NCBI GenBank assembly: GCA_016215625.1
Contig: JACRIW010000016.1
Coordinates: 6,025 to 70,024, forward strand
Direction: 5' to 3'
Origin: Candidatus Eiseniibacteriota bacterium
GTDB lineage: Bacteria; Eisenbacteria; RBG-16-71-46
Length of the DNA stretch: 64,000 nt
The notes beneath the pieces are model-generated. The model saw only the letters and a program-made list of their open reading frames with translations, was not told the DNA's origin and did no database searches. Position numbers and translations under genes: made by a program. This document shows positions 13,482 through 37,997 of this stretch, in pieces (the stretch's first letter is position 1; each line of letters starts with the position of its first letter).

Positions 13482-13833
13482 ATCACGGCAGCGTTCGAGG
13501 TTGCTCGCGTTGTTGACGGCCCACTCTCTCGGGCGGGCCGTCACAGCGAGGCAACTGGCTCGGGGGGAGTCGCGATGGCGACTCAACCAATCGCGACGGC
13601 AAGATAGCAGCGAGCTCTTCGGAGTCAATCTCGACGTGGCTCTCGGGCTCGCTGTCCTCGACGCACGTGCTCGACTGCTGAGTGTGGCGTGATCGGACCT
13701 CCGCGACGGCGACCTCCAGGCGTCAGGCTCTCGCCTCCTCAAGTAATCCAAGGCCGTCGCGTGCACACCGGGGCCGCGGAAATCGCGGGTGCAAAGGTGG
13801 TCGGGTTCTTGCCGCACTCAGGCGGTGTGGCCA

Positions 13834-16800: not shown

Positions 16801-17259
16801 CCACAACGCGGCGGTGGGAGGAAGATTTCTCGCGTGCAAGCCGGTTGGGTCGTTCAGTGCGAGTGCGCGAAGCAGCATCTTCGCAAGAGCGTCCTCGTCG
16901 CCCCCCGAGCACACGCCATGATCGGGGTCGTCGGCCGGCATCTCCTCGCCCGAGTCGCGCCGGGCCGGGTCGGCATCGGCAGCTGCCGAGGGATCGGTTG
17001 TTGCGGCGTCTCGATCGCTCTCGACTACCACCCCGGGAGCAGCCCGACCTGGAGTGTCTCGCCTTCTGCGTCGCGGCGGCTCAACTCCTCGAGCCTCGGG
17101 ATAGATCAAGTTGAACTCACGAATCGCATGAGCCGCGAGCTTCAAATTCAGCGGGCCCGGGCGATCTTTGCACTCCTTGGCGGCCGCGAGATGCGCGGCG
17201 AGATCGGCATCGATCAGGCTAATCTGAGCCAGGAGCCGATCGAACTCTTCATTCGTCAT
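13834..17259 (-). CDS. Large (~1141 aa) all-alpha-helical protein of unknown function, located about 50 bp downstream of drmMI; candidate accessory DISARM component
   Basis: There are no recognisable catalytic motifs. The sequence is long, Leu/Ala/Glu-rich and helical (HEAT/ARM-like character). The ATG at 17259 has GAGGTG just upstream; alternative starts are the ATG at 17286 and the TTG at 17298. It is on the same strand as, and 48-9 bp downstream of, the drmMI stop (17308). Confidence 0.55.
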   Translation of the reverse strand: MTNEEFDRLLAQISLIDADLAAHLAAAKECKDRPGPLNLKLAAHAIREFNLIYPEARGVEPPRRRRRDTPGRAAPGVVVESDRDAATTDPSAAADADPARRDSGEEMPADDPDHGVCSGGDEDALAKMLLRALALNDPTGLHARNLPPTAALWNRLQKWFVGRCHYRKGLARLEDQRPEFETKWSRLLGILHSIHGPILTVLPELQVLGRQDPSSPGASESIQALISKPEAFRRFLVEYAGAQWFSFLNAQGYFESPYEPVVEGDIISFPPWPQSQYMARIAASCPNEIAEFILRRGGDIRNALIQIDLVAAAVAMPPDVAARLVTRFGRWLQRGVSLRVPFQLGDLCVRLATGGQHRAALRLLSLMLSCNEPSSGGADHFRRVNPRLNPHAYEMILKQCEAALLPTCGLELHQTLVRQLRAVVHAEHGAGYDDYSWMWADDLGAEEDFSDGIAEALVAAVVRVARRHLESHPEDLGDFLGHLAVPPQAIFRRLQLFLLAEIDPSSRPALDRLIDRAIFDDPLARIEYRLLLSEAWEYLAQADQEMILAWILAGPSQQDDDVTDQAMADREAQRTEQKETWQYYWLKPIAGSISGEARDLYESLSRTRSAERAPRGFRRFSWVGPTSPLASDELRAMSPKEVISYLRAWIPAAEMMTPSPEGLARELVEVIKARREEWSGAALEFQRGLDLAYVRALFEGLADEHGGETTLDWLVILELCEHIVGIAAPTAPSEPGAALSRHSEVLRAMATLLQRALRGQLGLRLEHRARVWGVIERLAHDADPEPMEHERLRGRLAEPEVIALNSVRGVAMHAAVEYALWVARMLKSEGRTPNSWFEEVPEVRALFDEKLDVGREPCGAIPSVLAHYLPNLLYLDREWLRASVDRMFGGLGDAWEVYLLFGQVHLGVVPMLYESYLGACRGLGSESANERTNDLGQALAVHVLLLNAYCAEVMPGFDELLEAFFEHASPELRSHFLGQAGWHVEGNPEIGAKPLERIMAVVERRVRIAAASSSTAESAELSNWEPLCRASAFPDAWVAEMAKLALRASPGVAADLWLPERTGKIADTDLASALELLLLAASRPLMPLGLHNWTEPATKIIRLAVAQGGNLRETAREVVNQFSERGYSGYEGLLDGDGLQD

Positions 17260-17307
17260 GTGCACCTCGGCCCAGGGGCTCGCCATCGCATCGCACAATC
17301 TCAGGTC

Positions 17308-20300
17308 TCACGAGAAGAGGTCGGGGGCTTCGGGCTTGGGTGGGGCCGGCTTCGGCGACTTTGCGCGGGACTTGGCTGCCGACTTCTTGGCGGGTTTGTC
17401 GTGGAGGCCTTGGGCGAGTTCTTCGGCGTGGCGGTCGTGGTTGAGCTGGAGGAGGCGAGCGAGCACTTCGCGGCGGGCGGGGTCGCTCAGGGTGAAGCGG
17501 GTGCCTTGCTTGGTGGCGTGGAAGTCGTGGCCGAGCGCGAGGTCGGTCCAGCCGTAGGCATCGGAGACGGCGCGGTCGAGTTCGACGTGGAGCGCGCGAA
17601 GTTGCTCGATGTCGGGCGATTTTTCGGCGGGCGAGTGGAAGCGGTTATAGGTGGCGGTCAGGCCTTCGCGTTCGGCTTCGTACACTCGAAGCCGATGTTC
17701 GACAAGCTGGCCGCGTACTTCTCTTGCGTGGAGAGATGCTAGATGGAATGGAAACACCTCAAACGTGTCCGTCAAAACGTAACGAACCCTACTTTCAAGG
17801 GTCGAAGCATACGCCCTGACCCAGGCCTCATAAATCGTCGACTCCAACGGAGCCCAGAGTTCCGCATCGACAATGACATTAAGCCCCACGTCGAACACCT
17901 GAGCAGGATTCGCCGAATGATGTGCAATGAACTTCGTGACGCGGCAAGCTACAAGCACACTGTCCAAGCTATGAACCGCGGCGTAGAGACCCATCGTCGG
18001 CCGCGCAAACTGCCACCAGCGACGAGCCCGATCACGCGCAGTGGCATCCCCAGCTGCAAGCCTCTCTCTCTCTGCGCGTGCCCTCTCCTCAATGAGCCGC
18101 AAACACTCCGGATACTCCGCCGCCACCGGCCCCTCGTATCCCTCCGGCGCACTCGCTCTATCCAGCGGCCAGTCGTGGAAGTTGATCACCCAGCGGCTCG
18201 GAGACTGGTCCCATCGCGAATTGAGATCTTCACCGTTCAGGTACGGGAACAGCACGTCGCGATTGCGCGGATCGCGGGCAATCAGCGCTTGCGCTTCCTC
18301 GGGCTCCAGCACGAACCCCATTCCGAGCACGATCGAACCCTGAAACGACTTCCCCGCGTTCGCGGCCAGCCGATACGGCTTGCCTTCCACGCTGCCGGGC
18401 ACGGTCAGGTAGGGCGTGATCCCGCCCACCGCGTTGCCGTCGAGCACGTGACCACCTGCCCACGCGCCGCGTCGCACCCACAGCAGCGCCACCTCGAGGT
18501 TCGCGACGCCCGGCCACTTCTGGCTGGCCACCGCGCGCGGGCACACGTAGCCGTCGGCCAGCAGCGTGTCGAGCCCGACCTCGCGCGTGTCGCCCTGCGC
18601 AATGGTGTTGGTCGCGATCATGCCGATCGCCCCACCGTCGCGCAGCAGTTCGGCCACGCGCCGCATGAAGTAGGCGCTCAGGTCGGCGCTGCCCGTGGCG
18701 CCGTGCGCGACGACCTTCACGAGATACGTGCGGTAGTCGCTGCCCATGGGACCGGTGATCTTCTGTCCCCCCAGGAACGGCGGGTTCGCGACCATCGAGT
18801 CGAAGCCACCCTGCTCGAACACCTCGGGAAACTCGATCGCCCAGTGGAACGGCCGGCGGCTCATGCCACGCGGCGGTTTGGCGGCATCGAGCAAGCGCTG
18901 CCCCTCGGCGCGCAGTTCGGACAACCGCGCGGTACGTTCGGCGCTGCCCTCGGGCGTGTCGAACAGGTCAGCCGCGCGATCGCGCGCCGCGCCCATAACA
19001 GATTTCGCGTTCACGTCCTTCGCGTGACCGGCCAGCGTCGCGCCCACCAGCAAGTCGCCCAGCGCGCGCAGTTCCGCCAGCCGCGCGTCGGCTTCGGCCA
19101 GCAGCGCGGCCTTGCGCTCCGCGTCGGCGGCGCTCAGCACGGGGAACCCTTCCAGTTCGCGCCGCTTCTCCGACGCGGCGGTCAACGCGGGTGCCACCAG
19201 CCGCTCGAACGTCTGCAGCTTCTGCCCCGCGGCTTCGCCCAGATCGAAGTAGCGCAACTGCTCGGGCCGCGTCACGCCCAGCAGTGAATCCCCCGCGCGC
19301 AGCGCGTGGTCCAGAAAGTTGAACGGGCGGTCCTTCTGCAGCGTGACCAGCCACAGCGACAGCTTGGCCATCTCTACGGCCATGGGGTTACGGTCCACTC
19401 CGTACAGGCAGCGGTCGGCCACCAGTCGCATGGCCACTACGCGGCGCTCTTCGTCGTCCAGCGGCACCAAGCGTTCACCCGCGGCGCCGGTCGAGGGCTC
19501 ACCCTCGGGTGTCACGCGCACCGCGCCGGGCGCGGCGGATTCGGCAGCGGACCAGGCGTCCAACAAGCGTTCGGCAAGGTAGCGACAGGCCTGCACCAGG
19601 AAAGCGCCCGAGCCCATAGCGAAGTCGCACACCTTCAGCGTCAAGAGTTCGCGCGCAGACCTCAGCTGCCACTCGGCTTCAGGCAGGCCTTCGGCCGGCC
19701 CGCGGTAGACCACCGGCTCCAGCGCGTGGCGCACGATGGGCTCGGTCAGCGTGCGCGGCGTGTAGTGCGTGCCGCTGGTGCGACGGCTGTCGCCCGCGGT
19801 CACGTACACGCTGCCCGCCCGAATCACCACGGGCGCCTCGAGCGTGTCGTCGCGCACCAGTCCCAGCCACGGCTTCACGCGGACGTAGAGCTGCTCGTCG
19901 TTTCCGCACGATCGACGCGCGCGCGCTTCGTCGCGCACTACAGGCTGGGCGAGCGCTTTCTCGAGCGTCTTGCGGGTGCGCCCGGTCTGCTCTTCGAGGT
20001 AATCGAGCAGCTCCTTGCGCCCCTTCTGCTCCAGCGCCTCGAGCTTCGGCAGCGGCACTTCGGGTTCGAGCGAGCCGCCCAGCCCGAGGATCGGCGCCTC
20101 CACCGCGGCCGCGCGCACGGCGGTGTGGTCGAGCAAGCCCTCGTACACATGGCCCACGTCTTCCACGTCGAGCTCGCGGAACGACAGCTGACGCCGCTCG
20201 CGACCGCCTGGCACTTCGACTTCCAGTTCCTGCAATGCAGTCAACAGGTGCAGCACGGTGCGATTCGACACGGCCAGCGGCTGGGCGGCAGTGTCGCGCC

Positions 20301-21456
20301 AGTGCGTACCAGCCTCGCGGCCCTCAAGGAACGCGAAGCGGTCGGGATCGAACAGCGACCCGCCGTATGCGGGGAATGCCAGCGCCTCGTGCCGCGCGCC
20401 CTCGTGAATCAAACGGAACGTGGCCAGCAGACGGCCCCATGCGTCGTAGCGCGACTCCAGCACTTCCTCGCCGTGCTGGTCGGCGGCTTCGCGCAGCTGC
20501 TCGCGCAGCGTGGACACGGCGTAGTCGCGCGCGTAGGACTCGCTGCCCTCGCCCATCAGCCCTCGTTCTTCGGCGGCAAACAGGAACACCAGCCGCATCA
20601 TCACGGTGAGCGCGCCTTCGTACACCTCCACCGGAGGCACCCGGGACAGCAGCTGGCCCTGCCGCGTGCGGTCGGCGGTGTCGAGCGCCTGCACCAGCAC
20701 TTCGACGGCGCGACGCACCTGCTTGCCGAGCTGGTCGGTCACCAGATGCTGCTTCGATCGGCTGCGATCGAGCATGGCCTCCAGCGTGTGCTCGGCCGCC
20801 ACGGCGAAGAACCGCGACGACTCGAACAGCGCATAGAACGCGGTCAGGGTGTCGCGTTCATCCAGCCACAGGTCCACGTCCCAGTGCGCCACACCGGGCA
20901 TCTCGCCGGGCACCAGCTGCACGAACGTCCACTCGGCGCCGTTGGTCACCAGCCCCAGTCGTACGCCCGTTCCGCGCAGCAGCTCGACCATGCGGTCGGT
21001 CGGACTCGCTCGCCACGTGCGGTCCTGCAGCGGGCGATCCAGCTGCTGCCGGGGCGTCACGATGCTCACCAGCATGCGAACCCGCTGCCCATCGGGATGG
21101 CCCTCGGGGTTCTGCAGCAACAGATCGGGCGACAGCGTCTCACGGCCGAGCGGCGCCTGCGCCGTGGGCAACGTCACGCCCGCGCCCAGCGCACGCACAC
21201 AGCCCGATGGCCAGCCGAGGAAGTCGCGCACCACGTGCTCGCACCACTGGCGGTGCAGCGCCAGGTCGGGGCGCGGGCCCGAGACGGCGTCGCGCCATTC
21301 GGACAAAGCGTCGCGCAGCCACTCGAACTTTTCGGTGGGCGGCGCGGCCATCCCCTGTGGCCATACCTCCACCAACACCGGCGGCGACAGGAACGGCCCT
21401 GCGGGCTCGGCAAAGCGGAGCCATTCGAATCGCTGGCGCATCGGGCGGCGGCTCAT
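17308..21456 (-). CDS. drmMI: DISARM DrmMI, large N6-adenine (gamma-class, Eco57I/PglX-like) DNA methyltransferase
   Basis: Motif I is VCDFAMGSGAFLVQACRYL and motif IV is SMVANPPFLGGQ (NPPF). The HYTPRTLTEPIV block is typical of these approximately 1300-aa defence methyltransferases. The ATG at 21456 overlaps the drmD stop (ATGA). The listed ORF extends to 21516. Confidence 0.8.
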   Translation of the reverse strand: MSRRPMRQRFEWLRFAEPAGPFLSPPVLVEVWPQGMAAPPTEKFEWLRDALSEWRDAVSGPRPDLALHRQWCEHVVRDFLGWPSGCVRALGAGVTLPTAQAPLGRETLSPDLLLQNPEGHPDGQRVRMLVSIVTPRQQLDRPLQDRTWRASPTDRMVELLRGTGVRLGLVTNGAEWTFVQLVPGEMPGVAHWDVDLWLDERDTLTAFYALFESSRFFAVAAEHTLEAMLDRSRSKQHLVTDQLGKQVRRAVEVLVQALDTADRTRQGQLLSRVPPVEVYEGALTVMMRLVFLFAAEERGLMGEGSESYARDYAVSTLREQLREAADQHGEEVLESRYDAWGRLLATFRLIHEGARHEALAFPAYGGSLFDPDRFAFLEGREAGTHWRDTAAQPLAVSNRTVLHLLTALQELEVEVPGGRERRQLSFRELDVEDVGHVYEGLLDHTAVRAAAVEAPILGLGGSLEPEVPLPKLEALEQKGRKELLDYLEEQTGRTRKTLEKALAQPVVRDEARARRSCGNDEQLYVRVKPWLGLVRDDTLEAPVVIRAGSVYVTAGDSRRTSGTHYTPRTLTEPIVRHALEPVVYRGPAEGLPEAEWQLRSARELLTLKVCDFAMGSGAFLVQACRYLAERLLDAWSAAESAAPGAVRVTPEGEPSTGAAGERLVPLDDEERRVVAMRLVADRCLYGVDRNPMAVEMAKLSLWLVTLQKDRPFNFLDHALRAGDSLLGVTRPEQLRYFDLGEAAGQKLQTFERLVAPALTAASEKRRELEGFPVLSAADAERKAALLAEADARLAELRALGDLLVGATLAGHAKDVNAKSVMGAARDRAADLFDTPEGSAERTARLSELRAEGQRLLDAAKPPRGMSRRPFHWAIEFPEVFEQGGFDSMVANPPFLGGQKITGPMGSDYRTYLVKVVAHGATGSADLSAYFMRRVAELLRDGGAIGMIATNTIAQGDTREVGLDTLLADGYVCPRAVASQKWPGVANLEVALLWVRRGAWAGGHVLDGNAVGGITPYLTVPGSVEGKPYRLAANAGKSFQGSIVLGMGFVLEPEEAQALIARDPRNRDVLFPYLNGEDLNSRWDQSPSRWVINFHDWPLDRASAPEGYEGPVAAEYPECLRLIEERARAERERLAAGDATARDRARRWWQFARPTMGLYAAVHSLDSVLVACRVTKFIAHHSANPAQVFDVGLNVIVDAELWAPLESTIYEAWVRAYASTLESRVRYVLTDTFEVFPFHLASLHAREVRGQLVEHRLRVYEAEREGLTATYNRFHSPAEKSPDIEQLRALHVELDRAVSDAYGWTDLALGHDFHATKQGTRFTLSDPARREVLARLLQLNHDRHAEELAQGLHDKPAKKSAAKSRAKSPKPAPPKPEAPDLFS

Positions 21457-24400
21457 CGTGCCAGCCTCGCCGGCACGAGGAACGAAACCGCGAACGGGAA
21501 CAGCCGAGGCTCGCACGACGCGAAGCGAGCCTCGATCAACCGACGCTCGGCATCGATCTCGGCGGGGATGCGCTCGAGCCGCAGGCGCATGGCGTCGCGG
21601 TTGTGCTGACGCTGCGTGCGCTCGGATTCGAGCTGCAACTCGAGCTGTTCGAAGTCCATGTGCGTCATGCGTGCGCGAATGGACTTGGCCAGCTCGTTCA
21701 GGATGGCCGCGCTATCTGCCGCTTCCCTAGCCCCGCGCTCCGCGAGCTTCTTCTGCATGCCTTCGGCCAACGCCCGCATGCGCGCCTCCAGCGCACGCTG
21801 GAGCGGATCGCGCAGCCTGGGCCATTGTTCGGCGAATCGTGCCTGCACGCTGGCCGGCACGGGCTCAGACGTGGCGGCCTCCAACGCGGCCTGCGTGTCG
21901 CCCACGCCCAGGCGTTCGGCGCGCGGCGCCTCGAGCCGCAGGCCGGCGGCGATGATCTCTTCGTGCACGCGCCTTTGGTCACCGCCCAACACCACCACGC
22001 GGCCGTGCGCAACCACTACGGGATCGCGAAGGGCGGTGTCGGGCACGATGCGCGCGGTCACGCGGTGCAGGTGACGGCGGTGCTGCGCGTCCCACATCTC
22101 GCCGCGCAGCAGCCGAAGGCAGTTCGAGACCAGCCGGTGGTGCAGGTGCGCGAGCACGACGTCGTCATGGCCGTCGGCCAGCGTGGCGTCGAACACCACC
22201 GGCCGCAACACGCCCGTGTGCGGGTGCGCGAGCCCTTCGGCGCACGCCAGCCACGAGCCGTCGAACGGTGGCAGGCGCCACGCTTCGATCTGCGTGGGAG
22301 CGCCGTCGCGGTTCGTGCGAGGAAGCACCACGCGTTCGAGGGGCGGCCGTTCGGCGACCGCGAGCCCGGTCTGCACCACGTGCAGCACGTTCTGCGGGCT
22401 CAGGTGCAGGTCGCGGCGCGTCTCCTGAAGCTGGTCGGTCAGCTTGCGCAGCTCTTCTGCCAGTCTGCGCTCGAACGTCAGCTGGCGGCGCACCTGCTCG
22501 CCTTCGCTCTCGGCTTGTTCGGTTTCCATGCGCCGTCGCCCGCCCAGCATGGCCTCTTCGACCTGTGTGGCAATGACCGGCCCCACCTTGCCCAGATCGC
22601 GACGAATGTTCTCGACCTTCTCCGCCGCACGCGCGAGGAACTCCAAGTCGCCCTCGAGTCGCCCGGGCGGAACCTGTGGATCGCGGCGGCCCGTTTCATA
22701 GCCGCGGGGCACGAAGTGGTGAATGAGCACTTCGGGTTCGGCCTGGCCACGACGATCCACGCGGCCGTTGCGCTGCTCCAGCCGCATCGGGTTCCACGGA
22801 ATCTCGTAGTGCAGCAGCCGGCTGCAGTGGTTCTGCAGGTCGATGCCCTCGGAGGCCGCGTCGGTCGCGAGCAGGATGCGCACTGCAGAAACTACCGGGC
22901 TCGCCTGGAACGCCGCCTTCACGGCTTCGCGCTGATTGGTCTCCATACCGCCGTACAGCAACTCGAGACGGCCGTCCGCGGCGAAGCCCTCGTGCGCGAG
23001 CAGGTCGTGCAGCCACTTCTGCGTCGAGCGGTACTCGGTGAACACGATCACGCGCTTGTCGCCCCAGCTTCCGCCGGGGCGCACGGTCGCCCGCAACCAG
23101 TCGAGCAGCTGCTGTGCACGCGCGTCGGCGCGTTCGGCCAGTCGGGCGGCGCGCTCACGCAGACTCTTCAGCAACTCCTTCGCACGCACATCGGGCCGGC
23201 TCAGCGTGCGCGTGGCCTGTCGCACGTTCTGGGCCGTCTCGCCTTCGATCACGTCGTCATCGGCTTCGTCGTCGAGCTCGTCCAGCAGCCGGGCGAACCG
23301 CGCGGCGTTGCCGGCAGGTTCGGTCGCCACCTGCTCGCGTGCGCGAACCGACTTGGCGTGCTCTTCGATAGTGTCGCGGAATGCAGCGGGAGAAGAGAAC
23401 AGTCGCTTCTTGAGCAGCTTGGCCACGAACTCGCCCGCGTAACACCGGCCGCCCTCACGAGCGGATCGCACGAGCCATGCGGAGTAGTCCTGCAGCTCGG
23501 CGTGCAGCACGCGCTCGTCATCGCCGTACTCCACCTCGATCGGCACGATCCGGCGCTCGGGGAACCGGCGCCGGCCGTCCCATTCGCGAATCTGCGGTTC
23601 GTCCTTCAGCCGGCGCACCATGACCGCCTGCAGCTGCTTGGGATCAGGTGGCACGTCGGGCATGAAGCGCTGGTCGTCCAGCATGGCGAGCAGCGAGCTG
23701 AAGCTCTCCGAATAGCCGTTGTGCGGCGTCGCGGTGAGGAACATGCGGTGCTCGAAGTGCGGCGAAATCTCGCGCAGCATGCGTGTGCGCTGCGAGTCCG
23801 TGGCGTAGCGACCGCGCCCCGAGGGCGCAAGGTTGTGGGCCTCGTCCACGATCAGCAGATCCCACTTGCGCGGGTACACGGGCTCGCCCGGCGCGGGCAG
23901 CCCGTGCCGAAACAGCTGCATCGGGCGTTCGCGCTTCAAGTAGTCGTACGACGTGATCAAACGCGGGAAGTGCGCCCACGGATTCACGTGGGGTCCGCGC
24001 CGACGGCGCAGGTCGCGCATCAGTTCGGTGTCCACGATGCGGAACTCGAGCCCGAACTTCTCGCGCAGCTCGTCGCGCCACTTGATCTGGAGCGCGGACG
24101 GACACAGCACCATCACGCGGCGGGCACGGTGACGCAGCAGCAGTTCCTGCAGTACCAGCCCGGCTTCGATCGTCTTGCCCAAGCCGACATCGTCCGCCAC
24201 GAGCAAGTTGACGCGCGGCATGCGGAGCGCGCGAGCGAGCGGCTCGAGCTGGAAGTCCTCGATCGCGACGCCGCTGCGGAACGGCGCCTGCAGTGAGCGC
24301 GCGTCGGCCGAAGCGATCGCTCCCCAGCGCACGGCGTCCACGAAGGCGTCGAAGCGCGCGGGATCGTCGAAGGCCGCTGGCTCGGGCAGCGACCGCTCGT

Positions 24401-24728
24401 CGTCGAGCCGGGCGCCGGGCTCGATCTCCCAGATCACCTCCAGCGTCTCACCGTGCGCGTCATCCTCGACCGAGGCGAGTGCCACCAGGTGTTGCGGCTC
24501 GAGCTGGGGCTGCAGCGGATCGGGCGCAAGCTCGCTGCGCCGCACGTCGGTCACGACATAGCGGCGTTCACGCACGCGAACGATCTGGCCGGTTTCAGGA
24601 GCCGAGGACATGGGGAGATATGGGAAATCCGCACGGGAAGGGATTGGGATTCCGGACGGCGCGGACTCTACCCTATCCGGCCGGAGCCGTAACGGATCGT
24701 GTCGGGAGAGAGCGCCGGAGCGGCTCAC
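21453..24728 (-). CDS. drmD: DISARM DrmD, SNF2-family helicase
   Basis: SNF2 motif I is LLVADDVGLGKTIEAG, motif II is DLLIVDEAHNL and motif VI is HYEIPWNPMRLEQRNGRVDRRGQ. The longest ORF starts with a GTG at 24728, only 16 bp from the upstream gene. An internal ATG at 24611 (MSSAPETGQIVRV) would leave a 132-bp promoter region, so the start is uncertain. Confidence 0.8.
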   Translation of the reverse strand: MSRSGALSRHDPLRLRPDRVESAPSGIPIPSRADFPYLPMSSAPETGQIVRVRERRYVVTDVRRSELAPDPLQPQLEPQHLVALASVEDDAHGETLEVIWEIEPGARLDDERSLPEPAAFDDPARFDAFVDAVRWGAIASADARSLQAPFRSGVAIEDFQLEPLARALRMPRVNLLVADDVGLGKTIEAGLVLQELLLRHRARRVMVLCPSALQIKWRDELREKFGLEFRIVDTELMRDLRRRRGPHVNPWAHFPRLITSYDYLKRERPMQLFRHGLPAPGEPVYPRKWDLLIVDEAHNLAPSGRGRYATDSQRTRMLREISPHFEHRMFLTATPHNGYSESFSSLLAMLDDQRFMPDVPPDPKQLQAVMVRRLKDEPQIREWDGRRRFPERRIVPIEVEYGDDERVLHAELQDYSAWLVRSAREGGRCYAGEFVAKLLKKRLFSSPAAFRDTIEEHAKSVRAREQVATEPAGNAARFARLLDELDDEADDDVIEGETAQNVRQATRTLSRPDVRAKELLKSLRERAARLAERADARAQQLLDWLRATVRPGGSWGDKRVIVFTEYRSTQKWLHDLLAHEGFAADGRLELLYGGMETNQREAVKAAFQASPVVSAVRILLATDAASEGIDLQNHCSRLLHYEIPWNPMRLEQRNGRVDRRGQAEPEVLIHHFVPRGYETGRRDPQVPPGRLEGDLEFLARAAEKVENIRRDLGKVGPVIATQVEEAMLGGRRRMETEQAESEGEQVRRQLTFERRLAEELRKLTDQLQETRRDLHLSPQNVLHVVQTGLAVAERPPLERVVLPRTNRDGAPTQIEAWRLPPFDGSWLACAEGLAHPHTGVLRPVVFDATLADGHDDVVLAHLHHRLVSNCLRLLRGEMWDAQHRRHLHRVTARIVPDTALRDPVVVAHGRVVVLGGDQRRVHEEIIAAGLRLEAPRAERLGVGDTQAALEAATSEPVPASVQARFAEQWPRLRDPLQRALEARMRALAEGMQKKLAERGAREAADSAAILNELAKSIRARMTHMDFEQLELQLESERTQRQHNRDAMRLRLERIPAEIDAERRLIEARFASCEPRLFPFAVSFLVPARLAR

Positions 24729-29248: not shown

Positions 29249-30247
29249 TCATGCAGGCGATCCGGCGGCATCCGGGAGCGCGGGGCGCGGCCCGAGGAAC
29301 ATGACCTCTTCCTCGAGCTCGACGCCGAACTTCGCGCGCACGCGCGCCTTGAGCGTCTCGGCGAGCGCCAGCATGTCGCGCGCGGTGGCGTGCCCGGCGT
29401 TGACGAGGATGTTCGCGTGCTTCGCGAACACCGCGGCGTCGCCCACGCGCAGGCCGCGCGCGTCGCAGGCGTCGAGCAGCGCGCCCGCGGGAATGCGGTG
29501 CGTGCCCGGCGAGTGCGGCAGCCCGGGTACCTGGAAGCCCGGCGGCAGGTTCTTGAAGTAGCTGCCCGCCGTCGGCTCGGTGCGCCACTGCGGGTGCTTC
29601 ACACGGCGGATCTCGAGCTTCTCGTCCATCTCGCGCTGGATCGCCGCGCGCTCTCCCGCCTCGAGCTGCAGCAGGCACGAGAGGATCACGTGCGGCTCGC
29701 GCTTAAGGCGCGTGTCGCGGTACTCGAACGCGAACCACGAAGCGGGATGGGTCTCGACCTTCGCGCCGTCGAGCGTCGCGACCGTGCACTCGATCACGCG
29801 CGCGCCGATGTCCTGGCCGTAGCAGCCGGCGTTGCCGTACAGCGCGCCGCCGACCGAACCCGGGATGCCCGCGGCGTACGCGAGCCCGGCGAGCGCCTGA
29901 TCGCGGCACTTCGCGATGAACTCGAGGTAGTCCGCGCCGCCCTCGACGAACGCCGCGGTGCCGTCGAACTCGACGCGCTCGCAGGCGTTCCGGATCACCA
30001 TGCCGCGCAGGCCGTCGTCCGAGACGAGCAGGTTGCTGCCGCCGCCGAGCAGGAACACCGGCATGCCGAGCTGGTGCGCGAGACGCAGCGCCTGCACGAG
30101 CACGTCGGTCGTGCGCGCGGTGACGAAGAAGTCGGCCGGCCCGCCGATCCGGAAGGTCGTGTGATGGCGGAGCGGCTCGCCGGTGAGCAGGTCGTCGCCG
30201 AGTTCACGGCGCAGGAGCGCCTCGGCGGCGCGATCGGGCGTGGACAT
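29249..30247 (-). CDS. murB: UDP-N-acetylenolpyruvoylglucosamine reductase MurB
   Basis: The M80 start gives MSTPDRAAEALLRRELGDDLLTGEPLRHHTTFRIGGPADFFV...GGGSNLLVSD...GIPGSVGGALYGNAGCYG, matching the FAD-binding and MurB C-terminal motifs. Confidence 0.8.
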   Translation of the reverse strand: MSTPDRAAEALLRRELGDDLLTGEPLRHHTTFRIGGPADFFVTARTTDVLVQALRLAHQLGMPVFLLGGGSNLLVSDDGLRGMVIRNACERVEFDGTAAFVEGGADYLEFIAKCRDQALAGLAYAAGIPGSVGGALYGNAGCYGQDIGARVIECTVATLDGAKVETHPASWFAFEYRDTRLKREPHVILSCLLQLEAGERAAIQREMDEKLEIRRVKHPQWRTEPTAGSYFKNLPPGFQVPGLPHSPGTHRIPAGALLDACDARGLRVGDAAVFAKHANILVNAGHATARDMLALAETLKARVRAKFGVELEEEVMFLGPRPALPDAAGSPA

Positions 30248-30335
30248 GCGCGCACGTTGCATCGGCCGCCGCGAGGCGGTCAAATGCGCGCTCGCCGCAC
30301 CACGCTCGCTTCCGTCCGGCACCCCACGAGGTGAC

Positions 30336-32240
30336 ATGCGCCCCACGCGCCACCACGCCGCCGCCACGAATTCGTCCGCGCCGTCTGCGCGTTCCGCGCG
30401 TTCAGCCGCCCTGCGGCTTCCGGCGCTCGCGGCGCTGGTCGCGCTCGCGCTCAAGCTCTCGGCGCTGCGCCGGCTGCTCGGCACGCCGCTCGCGGAACTG
30501 CGCGAGGCGGACGCCGAGGCGTACTGGCGCTGGTCGGGCGCGCTGCTCGAGTCGGGCGGGCGCGGCGACGCGCCGTTCTTCCTCGGACCGCTCTACCCCT
30601 ACACGCTCGCGCTCGTGCGCGCGCTCGCCGGGCACTCGGTCGCGCTCGTACTCGCGTTGCAGTGCGTCGCGGGCGCGCTCGCGATCGGCCTGCTCACGTT
30701 CGCGGCGGAGCGCCTCGCCGGGCGTGCCGTCGCGCTCACCGTCGGGCTGCTGCTCGCGGCGAACGCGTCGTGGACGTTCTTCGACCTGCTCGTGCTCTCG
30801 GAGTCGCTGCAGCTCGCGCTCGGCTCGGCGCTGCTCGCGGTGATGGTGTCGTGGCGCTGGGAGGAGCGCCCGCGCGCCGGAGCCGCGCTCGCGGGTGCGC
30901 TCGTCGGGCTGCTCGCGCTCGCACGGCCCAGCTCGGCGCTGCTGCTGCTGCCGCTCGTCGCGCTGTTCGCCGCGCGTGCGCCGCGGCGCGCGTTCGGGGG
31001 CACCGTGCTCGCGGCGGCACTCGCGATCGCGGCGTGCGCCGCCCCGGCCACGTGGCATCACGCGCGCGTGAGCGGTGAGTTCGTGCCCTGGACCTACAGC
31101 GGCGGCTTCAACCTGTTCGTCGGCCACGGCCCGTGGGCGAACGGCACGTGGAGCATGCCCGCACTGAAAGCCTCGTCGTTCGCGGGCGCGGCGCACGACG
31201 CGCCGAGCCGCGCGGGCGACTACGCCGAGGCGGTCGTGCGCGCCACCGGTCGCGAACCGAGCCCGCGCGAGCACAGCGACTACTTCGCGGACATGGCGTT
31301 CTCGTCCATGCGCGCCGAACCGGGACGCGCGCTGTCGCTGACCGCGCGCAAGCTGCTGCTCGCGTTCCACCACCGCGAGCTGCCGCAGATCGAGAGCCGC
31401 GAAGCGTACGAGCACCTGCTGGGCCCGCTCGGCGTGCCCGGGCTGGGCTCGTTCGCGCTCCTCGCGGTGCTCGGGCTCGCCGGCTTCGCATGCGCGTGGC
31501 GCACCGACGTGCCGTCGCGCGCGATCCTCGGCATCGCGCTCGTGCACGTGGCCGCGATGTGCGCGTTCTTCGTGACCGACCGCTATCGCGTGCACCTCGT
31601 GCCGCCGCTCGCGCTGGGTGCGGCGTTCTCGCTGCGTGCGCTCGCCGATCTCGCGCGGCGCCGCCGCGTGCCGCTCCTGCGGCTCGCGACCGGCGCGGCG
31701 ATCGGCGCGCTGCTCACGTTCGCGCCGGCGTACCCGTACGCGCGCACCCGCACCGCGTGGGACGCCGCCGTCACGAGCGGCGACGCCTACCTGCGGGCGG
31801 GCGACCCCGCGCGCGCGCTCACCGCCTACGACGACGCGGTCGCGATCGACCGGCGCGAAGGGGACGCGGGCGATCGCTCCGCGATGCGGCGCAAGATCCG
31901 CGCGGCGCTGTACGCCTCGCGCGCGATCGCGCTCGTCGAGCTGCGGCGCACGGCGGACGCCGCGGCCGAACTGGAGAGGGCCGTGGCGATCGACCCGTCC
32001 GACGGCGAGCTGGCGTTCTGGCTCGCCGACCTGCACGCGCTCGGCGGACGGCACGACGAGGCGGCGCGCGCCCTCGCGCTCGCCGGTCTCCCCCGCGAAC
32101 GCTGGGCCGTGCATTTCGAGGCGCTCGCCGTGGCGCGCGCGGCCGAGGGGCGATCGGAGGAGGCCGCCGCGTTCCGCCGTGCCGCGGGCGTGTTCGCGGC
32201 GAGGGACACCGTTCCGGACCGTGCGGCCCCGCGCAGGTGA
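30336..32240 (+). CDS. Membrane glycosyltransferase of the GT39/ArnT/PMT-like (dolichyl-phosphate-mannose mannosyltransferase) family, with C-terminal TPR repeats
   Basis: The internal ATG gives MRPTRHH.... There are multiple TM helices, a PFFLGPLYPY motif near the first loop (the DE-like loop of GT-C enzymes), and TPR-like C-terminal repeats (AYLRAGDPARALTAYDDAVAID...). It is divergent from murB. Confidence 0.55.
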   Translation: MRPTRHHAAATNSSAPSARSARSAALRLPALAALVALALKLSALRRLLGTPLAELREADAEAYWRWSGALLESGGRGDAPFFLGPLYPYTLALVRALAGHSVALVLALQCVAGALAIGLLTFAAERLAGRAVALTVGLLLAANASWTFFDLLVLSESLQLALGSALLAVMVSWRWEERPRAGAALAGALVGLLALARPSSALLLLPLVALFAARAPRRAFGGTVLAAALAIAACAAPATWHHARVSGEFVPWTYSGGFNLFVGHGPWANGTWSMPALKASSFAGAAHDAPSRAGDYAEAVVRATGREPSPREHSDYFADMAFSSMRAEPGRALSLTARKLLLAFHHRELPQIESREAYEHLLGPLGVPGLGSFALLAVLGLAGFACAWRTDVPSRAILGIALVHVAAMCAFFVTDRYRVHLVPPLALGAAFSLRALADLARRRRVPLLRLATGAAIGALLTFAPAYPYARTRTAWDAAVTSGDAYLRAGDPARALTAYDDAVAIDRREGDAGDRSAMRRKIRAALYASRAIALVELRRTADAAAELERAVAIDPSDGELAFWLADLHALGGRHDEAARALALAGLPRERWAVHFEALAVARAAEGRSEEAAAFRRAAGVFAARDTVPDRAAPRR

Positions 32241-32293
32241 TAACCTGCGAGCCGCTCGCGCACGGCGCGCGTGCGGCACACGAGGAGTCCCCC

Positions 32294-32515
32294 GTGACGA
32301 TCGAGATCCAGTACTGCGTGCAGTGAAACTATCTGCCCCGGGCCTCCAGGTTGGCGGCCGAGATCCAGCGTGAACGCGGCATCACCCCGACGCTCGTGAA
32401 GGGCACCGGCGGTGTGTTCGAAGTGACCATCGACGGCAAGCTCGTCTTCTCGAAGAAGGCGCTCGGCCGGCACGCGGAGATCGACGAGATCCTCGCACTG
32501 ATCCCGGCGACGTGA
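32294..32515 (+). CDS. selW: SelW/Rdx-family small thiol-redox protein with an in-frame TGA at the CxxU position (putative selenoprotein)
   Basis: A GTG has GAGGAG 5-6 nt upstream. Translation gives VTIEIQYCVQ-TGA-NYLPRASRLAAEIQRERGITPTLVKGTGGVFEVTIDGKLVFSKKALGRHAEIDEILALIPAT, which closely matches the SelW/Rdx signature (IEYCxxU.YxPRA...GGGVFEV.VDG.LVFSK...G.FP). The TGA at 32324-32326 sits exactly at the Sec position. The ORF track ends ORF 31133..32326 here. Confidence 0.6.
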
Positions 32516-32517
32516 CG

Positions 32518-32547
32518 GGCGGGCGCGATCACGCGCCCGCCTTTCCC
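32518..32547. terminator. Rho-independent-type terminator hairpin between convergent genes
   Basis: GGCGGGCGCG-atca-CGCGCCCGCC is a perfect 10-bp stem with a 4-nt loop, followed by TTTCCC. It starts 3 nt after the selW stop. Confidence 0.5.
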
Positions 32548-32552
32548 GCGGG

Positions 32553-33281
32553 TCACCGGTAGAGCGACTTGATGCTGCCCCACGTGCGATTGCGCACGGG
32601 CACGAGCGCACAGTTGCCCGGCAGGCCACCCTGCCACGTCGCCACATCGCTCGAAGCCGCGCCGGAAACGACGACCGACGGCAGACCATCCGACTGCACC
32701 AGGTTCACCGAGTTGAGCACGAGGCACGCGGGCTCGTCGCAGCCGGTGCACGCCGACGACCCGACGGTGTTCACGTTCAGGACCGTGTAGCGCACGGCGT
32801 AGTACTCGCGCGCCGGATCCATCGGGATCACCTGCGACGAATCCATCACGAAGATCGTCACGATGCGCGCGCGATCGTTCATGCCCGCGAACCCCTTCGT
32901 GAATGTGGTCGTGCCCGCGCCCGCGAGGCCGCGCAGGTAGTCGGCGCAGCCGGGCTGGCCGTTCATGTCGCCGCCCACCTGGAGCGCCGAGCGGCACAGG
33001 CCGGGACCGCGGACCGCCCACCACGGCGTGAAGCCGGGGTTCTGCGTGAGCAGGTCCACGACGATCTCGAAGCTCTTCACCTTCGTGAGCCCCGCGGGCG
33101 GCACGACCGAGCCGTACAGCACGTTGATGCCGATGTTCGACGCGCACGCCGAATTGCGATTGGTGGCGCCCCCGCCACCGATGCACTCGTTCCAGCCGAG
33201 GTTGACGCCCACGGCGTGCGCGAGCGCGGGGGCGCACGCGAGCACGAGCATCGTCACGAACATCGTCATCGCCTTCTTCAC
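32553..33281 (-). CDS. Secreted hypothetical protein
   Basis: MKKAMTMFVTMLVLACAPALAHA is a signal peptide. The protein is 242 aa and Cys-containing (several C...C pairs). Confidence 0.45.
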   Translation of the reverse strand: MKKAMTMFVTMLVLACAPALAHAVGVNLGWNECIGGGGATNRNSACASNIGINVLYGSVVPPAGLTKVKSFEIVVDLLTQNPGFTPWWAVRGPGLCRSALQVGGDMNGQPGCADYLRGLAGAGTTTFTKGFAGMNDRARIVTIFVMDSSQVIPMDPAREYYAVRYTVLNVNTVGSSACTGCDEPACLVLNSVNLVQSDGLPSVVVSGAASSDVATWQGGLPGNCALVPVRNRTWGSIKSLYR

Positions 33282-33300
33282 CGCATGCCGCCTTCCGTCT

Positions 33301-35706
33301 TCACCGCATGATCACGAAGCGCCCGGTCTGGTGCCGCGACGCGCTGTCCACCACGAAGAGATACACCCCGGACGCCACGTCCTGGCCGTTGCGCGAGATG
33401 AGATTCCACGAGGCCTGTCCGTCGCCCGAGCTTCCGTCGTGCGGGATCTCGGCCACGAGATCGCCCGCGAGCGTGTAGATGCGGACGGTGCAACGTTCGC
33501 GCGGCAGCCCGAGGAAGTCCACGTGCTTCGTGAACACGTCGCCGGGCACCGCCGGGCGGTCCCACGGCGCGCTCGCGCGGTACGGGTTCGGCGCGACCCA
33601 CACGTTCCCGCCGCGCGCGCCGGCCGCGACGTGCGGCACGACGCGCGCGTCGAAGTCCGGCTCGAACGAACTCTCGAGTTCGGCGACGTAGCCGGGCAGC
33701 GTGTCGTACGGCGCGTGCGCGCGCAGGAACGACGTCACGACGTAGCTGTAGTCGAAGCCGTCGTGCACGGTGGAATCCACGAACGCGTAGCGCCCAATCG
33801 CGTGCACCGGGATGCCGTCCACGTCGCCGGTGACGGGCGAAGACTCGTCGGTGATGCCCGCGAGCGTCGCGCCGCTGGCGCCATCGGCATTGAATACCGC
33901 GAGGCGCTGCCAGCGCTCGGGCGGCGGTAGCAGGCCGTCGCGGCGCCAGTCCGAAAGCCGGTAGAGCTTGTAGCCCGCGAAGCGCAACCCCGAGTCACCG
34001 ACGCGTCCCGAGGCGAGCACGGCCTCGGGTGCATCGTTCCACTCGATGCGCGCGTACGAATCGCCCGCGCTGGCGCGCTGTGCGGGCGGTGGCGGCAGCA
34101 GCGACAGGAGGTACCACGGGCGCGTGCGGTCCACGCCGTCGTTGCCGGTGCAGCCGTCGCAGTCGAGATCGGTCCAGATGGGCTTGCCGTGGCGGTACTC
34201 GATCTCGAAGGAGATGGACGGGCCTTGTGTGAGCGGATCCGGCGTGTAGTCGTCGTACACTTTCTGCGGGCAATGCGGATCGTAGGAGAACACGATGCCC
34301 TCGGGTGGCTCGTAATAGGTCTCGTGACCGTTCACGCCGGTCGCGCCGGCGAACCAGGCGCCGGCCTTCGCCGTGTCGGGCAGCATGTTGAACCGTGAGC
34401 CGCGCTGCAGGTCGCGCGCGGTGATCGCGAGTGCCGGGATGCTGTCGCGCGTCGAGGCTGCGACGAACGCGACGGAGAACTCGACCGATTGCCCCGGCGC
34501 CAGGTACGCGAACGGACCGCACGAGACGAGCACCGACACGTCCTGCGGGAGCGTCTCGTCGCGCACTCCCGGCCAGCGTCCCTCGAGGGCCTCCCAGCGG
34601 TCGCGGTCGAGCGACGGCGGCCCACCCTGCCCCGGCGGCAGTCCCGGCGAATACGAGTAGACATGAAAGGTCGTGTCGTACGCGGGTGCGCGTGCCGCCG
34701 CACGCGCCTCGCGCACACCGGGAAACACGTCGTTGGTGAACGTCGCGAGCGGATCCGTCGTGTGCGACAGCGGCACGATCGCGCCGATCGGCACGTTTGC
34801 CTGCCCGGGCAGCGGCGCCGCCGCGATCGCCGCGCCCTGCGTGCGCTCGAAGCACGGTTTCCGCCAGTAGCCGCCCGCATTGATCGCCGACTCGGGCTTC
34901 GGCACCACGCGCGAGTACGGGATGCGCGCGACCGCGTCGTCGAGATGGCCCGCGCCTTCGTTACGCCCGCGCGAATCGAGGTCGGCGTACAGCCCGAGCC
35001 GGAGGTCGCGCACGGTGTGCGCCGAATGGTTCGTGACCACGAAGCGCACGCACGCGATGCCGTCGAGCCCCGGCCGGTTGTACGTGAACGCCTCCTGGTG
35101 CACGGAGAGCCCGAGCGGCACGTGCTGTTCGCCACCGTCGTAGCCGTATTGGATCGCCTCGCGCGTGTCGTCGGTGTACTCGGCGGTGAGTAGTTCCTGC
35201 GCGGGCATGTCGAAGTCCTCGTCCACGAGTCCGTCGCCGTCGTCGTCGCGGCCGTTCACGATCTCCTCGTCGACTCGGCCGTCGCCGTCGTCGTCCACGT
35301 TCCAGCGTCCGCCGGGATCACCGGCCACCGTGAGCCGCACGCGGTCGTCCGGCTCGAGCGTCGGCCGCCACTCGAGCATCGGGCCGCCGGACACGCGGCG
35401 CTCACCCGACCCGGTGAGCCCGCCGACCCACAGTTCGGCGTGACCGAGCAGCTCGTGCCCGCTGCCGCTCGGGAACTCCCACGACGGATCGTACGAGCGC
35501 CCGTTGACGAACCACGGATTGCCGAGCACGCCGACGTTGCTCACGCGCAGCGAGAAGCGGCCCGCGTGCAGCACGGGGCCACGGTCCTCGATGTCCATCA
35601 CGGCGAAGGCGGGCGGCGCGAGCACGCACAGAGCCCCGCACGCGGCCACGCATGCGGCCCATGTGGCGACCACGGCGAGCGCGCGGCGGCGGAAAGGCGG
35701 GCTCAT
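33301..35706 (-). CDS. Large secreted protein with calcium-binding Asp-rich repeats and a C-terminal T9SS sorting domain
   Basis: The ATG at 35706 (MSPPFRRRALAVVATWAACVAACGALCVLAPPAFA, a signal peptide) overlaps the stop of the upstream gene (ATGA). DDDGDGRVDEEIVNGRDDDGDGLVDEDFD is thrombospondin-type-3-like. The C-terminus GVYLFVVDSASRHQTGRFVIMR is a T9SS CTD-like pattern. The longer ORF (to 37902) overlaps the upstream gene in another frame. Confidence 0.55.
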   Translation of the reverse strand: MSPPFRRRALAVVATWAACVAACGALCVLAPPAFAVMDIEDRGPVLHAGRFSLRVSNVGVLGNPWFVNGRSYDPSWEFPSGSGHELLGHAELWVGGLTGSGERRVSGGPMLEWRPTLEPDDRVRLTVAGDPGGRWNVDDDGDGRVDEEIVNGRDDDGDGLVDEDFDMPAQELLTAEYTDDTREAIQYGYDGGEQHVPLGLSVHQEAFTYNRPGLDGIACVRFVVTNHSAHTVRDLRLGLYADLDSRGRNEGAGHLDDAVARIPYSRVVPKPESAINAGGYWRKPCFERTQGAAIAAAPLPGQANVPIGAIVPLSHTTDPLATFTNDVFPGVREARAAARAPAYDTTFHVYSYSPGLPPGQGGPPSLDRDRWEALEGRWPGVRDETLPQDVSVLVSCGPFAYLAPGQSVEFSVAFVAASTRDSIPALAITARDLQRGSRFNMLPDTAKAGAWFAGATGVNGHETYYEPPEGIVFSYDPHCPQKVYDDYTPDPLTQGPSISFEIEYRHGKPIWTDLDCDGCTGNDGVDRTRPWYLLSLLPPPPAQRASAGDSYARIEWNDAPEAVLASGRVGDSGLRFAGYKLYRLSDWRRDGLLPPPERWQRLAVFNADGASGATLAGITDESSPVTGDVDGIPVHAIGRYAFVDSTVHDGFDYSYVVTSFLRAHAPYDTLPGYVAELESSFEPDFDARVVPHVAAGARGGNVWVAPNPYRASAPWDRPAVPGDVFTKHVDFLGLPRERCTVRIYTLAGDLVAEIPHDGSSGDGQASWNLISRNGQDVASGVYLFVVDSASRHQTGRFVIMR

Positions 35707-37997
35707 CGCGCCACCGGTCTTCGCGTCATGCCCCAGAAGTCCTGGAGCACCCAGTCGACGAGTGCGATCGCGTGCGCACGCTGGAAGTACCAGATCGGGA
35801 ACCCCGACGTGACAACCGGCGCGCAGTCGTCGCCGTGATAGAGCGTCATGACCGGCCAGTTGGGCCCGGCGAGTCCTCCCTGCGTCACGTAGAGCGTGTC
35901 GAGCGCCGAGCGCACCGGGCTCGCGGGCGTGTCGAGCCCCTCGAGGAGCCGGGTGGGCTGCGACAGGTACTCGGCGACATGGCTCGTCACGTAGAACTCG
36001 CCGTTCACGCGATACGGCGGCAGCGCATCCGTGGCCGCGGTCTTCTCGGCGAGAAGTGGCGGCAGTGCGGCGTAATCCGGCGCGCCGGCCCACCCGCCGA
36101 CCGCGCGCGGCGACTTCGCGGCCCGCGTGGTGCTGTTGAGCGTGATCTCGTGCCGCCAGTGCGGGAACGCGTACGGAAAGCGGCCGGCGACCAGCTCGCC
36201 CGTGGATTCGGCGAACACGTTGTCGGGCGTGCCGCGCGAGGGCTTGTACGAGATGAGGCTCGCGTACGCGGCGCCGCCTCCCATCAGCCACAGCCGCCCG
36301 CCCTGCGCGATCCACACCGCGAGCGAGTTGTTCACGCCGGGATCGGTGAGCGCGCGCAGCATCGGGATCGAGAACGCGCCCGAGCCGATCGGGTTGATGC
36401 CGTTCCGCGCGCGCGTGATGTCGGTGATCCAGACGATGTTCCGGTAGCGGTCGAGCCGTCCCAGCGACATGGCGCCGAGAGCGATCGAACGCGTACTGAC
36501 CGTGTCGAACGCGTAGCCCACGAAGATTCCGGGGACGCTGCGCGTGCCCGTGGGATAGCACCGCCACGGCTTGTCGCCGACCGCCACGAGGAACGAATCG
36601 AGTTCGGCGGACGTCGGCCAGGTGCCGCGCGGGCGGTCCACGCAGCCGCCCGTGACGAGCTTGTCGAGCGGGAAGCCCGTGTCGTTCACGATCAGCAGGT
36701 CGCGCTCGAACGTGGGGCGGCGGCAGCGGAATTCGATCACCGCGAGGCTCTGGTAGCCGATGTCGTCGGTGGCCTTGAGATAGAAGTAGTGCGGCGCGCT
36801 CACGCCCGAGGCCGCTGCTTCGAAGGGCGGCAACAGCACGTTCGTCGCGGTGGTCGGCTGGCTCCAGTGCGAGAGATCCGTGAGTTCGTTGGCGCGCGGC
36901 GCGATGTCCTCGATCGAACTGAGGTCGACCGCCCACTGGTAGGACTGGACATATGTGCCCGACGAGTTTGCGGCCGACCACGAAAGCGGGATCGGCAGGT
37001 CGGCGGGGAACTCCTGCTGGACGAAGCTCGACGGCTCCGAGAACCAGCCGCCGGACGGATAGCGGTAGTAGAACGAGTCGTTGAAGAGCGTGAGCTGCGG
37101 CCCGATGGAGGCGTTCGTGTCGATGTACAGGTCGAGCACGTTCTCGAACAGCGAGAAGCCCGGCGACGTCGCGCCCGCGGTGTCGAACGCGACGATCGCG
37201 AACAGGTAGCGCTGGCGCGGCGTGAGCCCCGAGAGCGTGAGCGACGTGGTGGCGCCGGGCAGCGAGTCCCAGCCCGCGTACGCGGGCGCGAACAGCGTCC
37301 GCAGCGTGTCCGGGTTCGCGGCGACGTCGGCGGCGGAGGGCGCCGTGCTCACCGAGAAGACGCGGTACTTGTATTCGACCGGCAGCTTCGACGTGACGCC
37401 GTCGGGGTCGCGCCCGGTCCAGTGGATCTGCACGGTCGGTGCGACGAGGCGCGAGCCGAGGCCCGAGGGCTGCGGGCCGGAGATCGCGACCGTGGGCGCG
37501 ATCGTCGTCGCGTCGAAGGTCACGGACGCAGGCGGCGACCACGCACCGCGATCGTCCACCGCCTCGACGACGAGCGTGTGCATGCGGTGCGCGACCGGGC
37601 CCGTGCCCGCGCTGTCCACGGGGAATTGGAAGAAGCGCCGGTTCTCGCTCGTCGCGGTCCAGAGCGTCTCGGCAGCCGCGGCGCGCGGCGGGTCCACCGC
37701 CCAGCGGAACCCCGTCACCGCGCCGTCGGCGTCGGAGGCCGACCAACTGAACTCGAACGCGTACTGCGAGGGCGAGCCGGATTGAGCGGGCCACTGCGTG
37801 ATCTCGACCGTGGGGCGAGCGTTCGGGATCAACACACCCATGTAGCCGCGCTCGGAGCACGAGGAAGCCGCGCACCACGCGACGATCACGAGACAGAGCC
37901 ACACGCCGGAACGCAATGTTCCGCGCACGAACGCCTTCACCGCCCTCCCCTTCTCACCCGGAACGGGGAGTGTGCGGGCCGCGCTCGCGCCCATCAA
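35703..37997 (-). CDS. Secreted/lipoprotein-like hypothetical protein (764 aa)
   Basis: The N-terminal hydrophobic segment is VWLCLVIVAWCAASSCS. The sequence is Ig/fibronectin-like in character (repeated ...WTGRDPDGVTS... blocks). Its stop overlaps the start of the downstream T9SS cargo gene. Confidence 0.45.
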   Translation of the reverse strand: MMGASAARTLPVPGEKGRAVKAFVRGTLRSGVWLCLVIVAWCAASSCSERGYMGVLIPNARPTVEITQWPAQSGSPSQYAFEFSWSASDADGAVTGFRWAVDPPRAAAAETLWTATSENRRFFQFPVDSAGTGPVAHRMHTLVVEAVDDRGAWSPPASVTFDATTIAPTVAISGPQPSGLGSRLVAPTVQIHWTGRDPDGVTSKLPVEYKYRVFSVSTAPSAADVAANPDTLRTLFAPAYAGWDSLPGATTSLTLSGLTPRQRYLFAIVAFDTAGATSPGFSLFENVLDLYIDTNASIGPQLTLFNDSFYYRYPSGGWFSEPSSFVQQEFPADLPIPLSWSAANSSGTYVQSYQWAVDLSSIEDIAPRANELTDLSHWSQPTTATNVLLPPFEAAASGVSAPHYFYLKATDDIGYQSLAVIEFRCRRPTFERDLLIVNDTGFPLDKLVTGGCVDRPRGTWPTSAELDSFLVAVGDKPWRCYPTGTRSVPGIFVGYAFDTVSTRSIALGAMSLGRLDRYRNIVWITDITRARNGINPIGSGAFSIPMLRALTDPGVNNSLAVWIAQGGRLWLMGGGAAYASLISYKPSRGTPDNVFAESTGELVAGRFPYAFPHWRHEITLNSTTRAAKSPRAVGGWAGAPDYAALPPLLAEKTAATDALPPYRVNGEFYVTSHVAEYLSQPTRLLEGLDTPASPVRSALDTLYVTQGGLAGPNWPVMTLYHGDDCAPVVTSGFPIWYFQRAHAIALVDWVLQDFWGMTRRPVAR

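Follow-up and report, generated by a model that had tools for sequence, protein, structure and literature searches.

SelW-like selenoproteins of bacteria, which carry a CxxU motif and a SECIS element inside their coding region, were first described in 2005 by Zhang, Gladyshev and colleagues (PMC1088965, PMC2398784). In metagenomes they are the most abundant known prokaryotic selenoprotein family: the Sargasso Sea data contain 48 Sec forms against 7 Cys forms, and GOS contains 427 against 56 (PMC1088965, PMC2398784). The metagenomic members of this family (PF10262, formerly PF05169; TIGR02174) are about 75 aa long and have their CxxU motif at the N-terminus, with Sec encoded by an in-frame UGA. 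Their bSECIS hairpin, which has a G in a small apical loop, lies within the coding region just 3' of the UGA. In environmental bacteria the Sec form is far commoner than the Cys form, and a redox role is presumed. The same features are found in the gene described here, located at positions 32294-32515 (+) of a 64,000-nucleotide stretch of DNA that was analysed as a whole and is called the window below. Nothing structural separates this gene from the metagenomic SelW-like selenoproteins; it differs from them in coming from a Candidatus Eisenbacteria MAG, where it is annotated as a truncated hypothetical protein. On the strength of sequence comparisons, we consider it very probable that 32294-32515 is a genuine Sec-encoding SelW-like gene whose CxxU motif is Cys-Val-Gln-Sec.

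Among proteins of known structure, the nearest relatives are Cys-form bacterial SelW-like proteins (2fa8 Atu0228, 3dex SAV_2001, 2oka, 2ojl, 2obk and 2p0g) and mouse SelW (2npb), and the CxxC of the bacterial proteins aligns with the CVQ-TGA of the window gene. The bacterial proteins have the domain in common with the window product (E = 3e-9 to 6e-4) and bear CTQC at the position of CVQU. The Cys that opens the CxxU redox motif is encoded by TGC at 32315-32317 (+) and falls opposite the first Cys of CTQC in 2fa8 and 3dex. These proteins differ from the window product in having CxxC and not CxxU and in being longer at the C-terminus (about 100-108 aa against 73 aa), and their genes need no SECIS. 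The Rdx fold family and the CxxU position are also shared by mammalian selenoprotein W (2npb; E = 2e-3) and the SelT/SelH/Rdx12 group. Eukaryotic genes rely on a 3'-UTR SECIS with a kink-turn core and on SBP2/eEFSec, whereas the window gene has a bacterial-type hairpin right after the UGA. Judging from its similarity to the solved structures, the 73-aa product would adopt a thioredoxin-like fold.

The translation of 32294-32515 (+) reads VTIEIQYCVQ up to an internal stop, the TGA at 32324-32326 (+), and continues with NYLPRASRLAAEIQRERGITPTLVKGTGGVFEVTIDGKLVFSKKALGRHAEIDEILALIPAT, whose C-terminal end is PAT. The full-length gene comprises 73 codons, including the one for Sec, and runs from a GTG start to a TGA stop at 32513-32515; the internal TGA is the predicted selenocysteine codon, residue 11. 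A Shine-Dalgarno-like GAGGAG, read from the sequence, is located at 32282-32287 (+) with a 6-nt spacer to the GTG at 32294, and GGAG/GAGG-like motifs occur at the equivalent place in most homologues. The ribosome-binding site and GTG start proposed by the first-pass annotation are both present. The 10 codons ahead of the TGA have a GC3 of 0.91 and those that follow it 0.89, with one frame throughout. When all six frames of the window (69% GC) were scanned, 67 CxxTGA/TGAxxC motifs with an open frame downstream were found, and only that of the SelW gene was coding-like. The gene is indeed split by ORF calling, as had been noticed beforehand: a long ORF (31133..32326) ends at the TGA, and a 54-aa ORF (32351-32515, +) restarts at a TTG at 32351, without the first beta-strand and the CxxU motif. 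The end of the long ORF at 32324-32326 had been placed correctly, but its description as antisense did not hold. This spurious ORF shares both strand and frame with the SelW-like gene, and overlaps a real gene at 30240-32240 (+) out of frame.

Profile searches were run on the 73-aa product with Cys in place of the stop. The product scored 68.1 bits with Pfam Rdx (PF10262; cut-off 22.6) over profile positions 1-72 of 74, 53.8 bits with NCBIfam TIGR02174 CXXU_selWTH (cut-off 34.2) and 88.4 bits with NF041051 SelT/SelW/SelH (seleno)protein (cut-off 88). The redox motif C8-V-Q-U11 follows the first beta-strand near the N-terminus, as is required of an Rdx protein. With Pfam Rdx and NCBIfam SelT/SelW/SelH scores above the curated cut-offs, the earlier claim that read-through of the TGA yields a 73-aa SelW/Rdx protein is borne out.

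In order to collect homologous loci, species-representative genomes and metagenomes were each scanned once with a query bearing Cys at the Sec position, and 37 loci were obtained. Because the query carried Cys at that codon, the search was unable to favour TGA. The N-terminus is covered in 36 loci; each of them has TGA at the aligned codon, and so has L042. The 36 loci represent at least 12 phylum-level lineages and have a locus GC of 34-73%; they come from Eisenbacteria, Gemmatimonadales, Thermodesulfobacteriota, Methylomirabilota, Ignavibacteria, Krumholzibacteriia, Chthonomonas, Acidobacteriota, Anaerolineae, Pseudomonadota, Actinomycetota, unclassified MAGs and others. Cys forms were seen in the homologues P0007 (TGT) and P0009 (TGC). 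The alignment of SelW homologues that had been recommended to distinguish Cys from Sec at this position gave TGA or, in these two proteins, Cys. The start codon stands exactly 10 codons 5' of the TGA in 34 of the 37 genes (28 ATG, 6 GTG) and 1-3 codons further up in the other three, and an in-frame stop is often found just ahead of it. The N-terminal peptide I-E/Q-Y-C-x-x is conserved among the homologues. Protein identities among orthologues span 46-100% and their contexts differ, which excludes that the loci are assembly copies of one another.

Directly 3' of the Sec codon, the next two codons (32327-32332) show almost no variation beyond AAC-UAY (Asn-Tyr) and GGN-UAY (Gly-Tyr). A purine follows the UGA in 35 of the 36 aligned sequences and C in the remaining one. 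Besides protein constraint, these fixed codons may reflect a codon-context requirement for Sec insertion.

A bSECIS-like hairpin, GGCC-U-CCA[GGU]UGG-C-GGCC, is located at 32341-32359 (+), with its apical loop at 32349-32351. It begins 14 nt after the UGA and has 7 pairs, a 3-nt loop GGU (or AGGUU), a UGA-to-loop distance of 22 nt and a folding energy of -9.5 kcal/mol. The bSECIS model used here specifies a loop of 3-9 nt, a stem of 4-16 bp, a G in the first two loop positions, a UGA-loop distance of 16-37 nt and an MFE of at most -7.5 kcal/mol (PMC13188914). All of these properties are found in the hairpin at 32341-32359 and in 33 of 36 homologues. The criteria alone are not discriminating here, because 26% of the 1285 TGA triplets in the GC-rich window pass all of them, and 9% do so with an equal or better MFE. 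Moreover, the single-sequence fold of the 76 nt after the UGA was no better than shuffled sequences (z = +1.0). With this z value and this base rate, the hairpin taken in isolation was rejected as evidence. Neither a SECIS nor any other meaningful family was matched in Rfam, whether the whole window was searched at gathering thresholds or the stretch 32250-32560 at permissive E-values.

The comparison between homologues was more informative. The 48 nt from the UGA were aligned without gaps in 36 sequences, and the hairpin fell in the same columns in nearly all of them. Pairing in the proposed register was observed in 82.7% of cells, against 24-51% with slid partners. Double-sided changes, which exchange CG and UA at two stem pairs and GC and AU at another two, numbered 25; slid partners gave 2-17. 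The covariation score was 0.301 against at most 0.159 in controls; the observed values were reached in 0 of 500 shuffles. The first loop base, G32349, is invariant in the 36 sequences, while the codon to which it belongs encodes Arg, Gly or Ser depending on the lineage; in these alignments, its invariance points to a constraint on the RNA. The hairpin is specific to the TGA form in so far as the Cys forms P0007 and P0009 (n = 2 only) lack it, with 4 of 8 pairs in register and folding energies of -4.8 and -6.9 kcal/mol, and lack the conserved G at the aligned first loop position. Part of the stem pairing could be due to protein constraint, as the stem overlaps the conserved codons A-x-x-L-A-A. 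The search for a bSECIS stem-loop 3' of the TGA, which the first-pass annotation had suggested, supports the proposal: the hairpin is present, conserved in position and covarying among homologues.

The bSECIS element of E. coli fdhF is likewise found inside the ORF, immediately 3' of the UGA. Its upper stem is short, with a U left unpaired on the 5' side, and its apical loop is G-G/U-rich; the hairpin at 32341-32359 has the same traits. The two elements differ in that the window hairpin has no sequence homology with that of fdhF and no Rfam match, and in that its binding by SelB is only predicted.

A TGA within a gene of this family could have arisen by a nonsense change or a sequencing error in a gene that once contained Cys, since changing one base turns TGC into TGA and the family includes Cys forms (P0007, P0009). 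The same TGA is found in L001, in L002 and in 34 further loci. L001 is a separate Logan assembly (run SRR12113407) that is 100% identical to the window over 30864-33536 (2673 nt), TGA included. L002 comes from a second, independent Eisenbacteria MAG and has the same 73-residue product; over the whole frame it differs from the window by 7 synonymous and 0 non-synonymous changes, whereas its flanking DNA is only about 86-87% identical to the window (13-14% divergence). As judged from these substitutions, from the GC3 values and from the N-terminal peptide and start position conserved in 34 of 37 loci, purifying selection acts on both sides of the UGA in one frame. A pseudogene and a sequencing error had both been named in advance as ways in which the proposal could fail; the former is excluded by the substitution pattern over the 73 codons and the latter by the shared TGA of L001 and L002. 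We regard this explanation as effectively refuted, with a very small probability. Reassignment of TGA to Trp or Gly in the genetic code was also considered, and was rejected: TGA ends 32 of the 40 predicted genes of the window and is thus the normal stop. Taken together, TGA conservation, the L001 and L002 sequences and this stop usage exclude sequencing error, pseudogene and a global code change. The database model, for its part, places the start of a 54-aa product at TTG 32351 and makes the upstream CxxTGA an untranslated leader or a remnant. Gene callers gave this model here and in most homologues, and in precomputed annotation the truncated product still matches Pfam Rdx. It is hard to reconcile with the 10 upstream codons, which have a coding composition (GC3 0.91), encode a conserved peptide and begin at a fixed-distance start in 34 of the 37 loci. 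These codons also give the first beta-strand and the redox motif, aligned with the solved structures. Furthermore, the TTG is not conserved as a start, and the truncated calls of homologues begin at various positions. The database model is in our opinion extremely unlikely to be right.

It might also be argued that the UGA is recoded to cysteine, by a selC* tRNA-Cys (UCA anticodon, tRNA-Sec-like) and a SelB paralogue, SelB*, acting on the same hairpin. A selC* tRNA-Cys(UCA) with an adjacent selB* is known from Syntrophobacterales and Desulfobacterales and has been proposed to be an opal suppressor (PMC5389517). A conserved TGA, a hairpin and purifying selection would look identical in that case. 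However, selC* and selB* have been reported only in delta-proteobacterial subgroups, where they occur beside a complete Sec system (PMC5389517), whereas the TGA form described here is spread over at least 12 phylum-level lineages, a distribution that the ordinary Sec pathway fits better. In addition, nothing in the window suggests selC* or selB*. Recoding to cysteine is hence very unlikely. The proposal of the first-pass annotation, a SelW/Rdx selenoprotein with Sec at the CxxU position, is supported by TGA conservation, by the conserved covarying hairpin and by purifying selection.

If the UGA is decoded as Sec, translation would start at GTG 32294, and the hairpin at 32341-32359 would be bound by a SelB-type elongation factor carrying Sec-tRNA(Sec). 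Sec would then be inserted at UGA 32324 with no termination, and translation would continue to the true stop at 32513. In the finished protein, the CxxU pair would alternate between its reduced form and a selenenylsulfide, a cycle already proposed for the SelW-like family, in a thiol/selenol oxidoreductase-type activity. The steps of SelB/tRNA-Sec decoding, selenium incorporation and redox chemistry are predicted by analogy with the established bacterial Sec pathway (SelA, SelB, SelC, SelD).

The SelW-like gene itself suggests that the Eisenbacteria organism has the Sec-decoding trait, and decoding of UGA as Sec by this organism would imply that selA, selB, selC and selD are present elsewhere in its genome. 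Within the material analysed, ARAGORN predicted no tRNA in the 64-kb window or in 38 loci, hence no tRNA-Sec. Pfam searches on all 40 predicted genes of the window gave no SelA, SelB or SelD domains. Similarly, neither the window nor the fetched loci gave a tblastn match to E. coli SelA or SelB, SelD being covered by the Pfam scans only. Two scans of the window for coding-like in-frame TGA codons gave no second selenoprotein gene; apart from the SelW gene, every hit was the end of a gene or an antisense frame.

The best database match, P0001, is a 54-aa protein from a Candidatus Eisenbacteria MAG named 'hypothetical protein HZA61_01860', and corresponds to the TTG-initiated fragment of the gene at 32294-32515. 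Of the 120 listed homologues, 117 have at most 74% query coverage and begin after the Sec codon. The full-length ones among them are only P0007 and P0009, which have CxxC, and P0008, in which 'W' is given at the Sec position; the DNA of P0008 has TGA at this codon. Such truncation is a recognised annotation artefact of bacterial selenoproteins (PMC13326102), and the 54-aa entry, starting after the Sec codon, is an artefact of this kind. Automated pipelines undercount selenoproteins in uncultured phyla, as the records of the window gene and of these 117 homologues lack the catalytic CxxU. The value of the finding lies mainly in this annotation aspect, since what has been found is a mis-annotated SelW-like gene of a well-known and abundant bacterial selenoprotein family. 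It changes nothing in the knowledge of Sec decoding or of SelW-like protein function.

For the host organism, the SelW-like gene is indirect evidence that UGA is decoded as Sec. The literature was searched for Eisenbacteria together with selenocysteine, and no paper in the library searched links the phylum to it. The aspects that are new, and only mildly so, are the host lineage Eisenbacteria and a clade-specific synteny. The latter concerns a PMT_2/TPR membrane glycosyltransferase-like gene, which lies directly upstream of the SelW-like gene on the same strand in 8 loci (the window, L002, L003 and L021-L025), at a distance of 53 nt in the window. We put forward, tentatively and with some doubt, that Candidatus Eisenbacteria is an unrecorded selenocysteine-using lineage and that the PMT_2/TPR synteny could give the SelW-like family its first functional context.

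No universal neighbour of the SelW-like gene was observed among the loci, where synteny is only clade-specific. In the Gemmatimonadales/Methylomirabilota group, a phosphofructokinase gene is located downstream of it. In the Gemmatimonadales- and Methylomirabilota-type loci L004, L006, L008, L014, L027, L028, L029 and L042, a conserved same-strand gene closely follows the SelW-like gene, a pairing with no obvious rationale. The L042 product matches Pfam PFK, and the sequence MRIA(I/L)STGGG begins most of the other products. Pfam annotation is almost absent from the 801-aa and 764-aa proteins that neighbour the SelW-like gene. On its 3' side, the window gene is converged upon by a 242-aa gene at 32553-33281 (-), which has no Pfam match and whose product has, by eye, a hydrophobic signal-peptide-like N-terminus. 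This gene is absent from the otherwise syntenic L002, in which window positions 32526-33298 have no counterpart and are replaced by about 70 nt.

Between the convergent genes, at 32517-32542, lies a GC-rich hairpin with 10 G-C pairs, one G-U pair and an AUCA loop (-30.5 kcal/mol, z = -3.9). The 'perfect terminator' that the first-pass annotation had seen here did not hold up. In a canonical intrinsic terminator, a U-tract with at least 5 U in 8 nt comes after the GC-rich hairpin, and the terminator scan made no call at 32517-32542, where the tail is UUUCCC, a run of three U that falls short of such a tract. Terminators of high-GC bacteria often lack a strong U-tract. The hairpin may terminate transcription, with its weak U-tract, but it is not a canonical terminator.

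Elsewhere in the window, PADLOC identified a complete DISARM class 1 anti-phage system at 3946-24728 (-). It consists of DrmD (21453-24728, -; 1330 bits), DrmMI (17308-21456, -; 1653 bits), DrmA (6602-10102, -; 990 bits), DrmB (4734-6605, -; 253 bits) and DrmC (3946-4737, -; 207 bits). The GC content of the DISARM block is 61-69%, against 70-75% elsewhere in the window, and this lower GC suggests that the block is a horizontally acquired defence island. DrmMI and DrmA are separated by four inserted genes (10099-17298, -). They encode a Dsr1-like protein of 1154 aa (13834-17298, -; PADLOC 107 bits, no Pfam match), an NHL-repeat beta-propeller protein (12270-13817, -), an HTH protein (10904-12049, -) and a weakly matching NTP_transf_8-like protein (10099-10920, -). 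This insert could be either a second defence module nested in DISARM or part of an unusual DISARM variant. Several large secreted proteins are encoded on the reverse strand at 33301-37997, 45609-48926 and 57891-59642. The subtilase encoded at 45609-48926 and the 583-aa protein encoded at 57891-59642 have FlgD_ig / Por_Secre_tail (type IX secretion sorting) C-termini.
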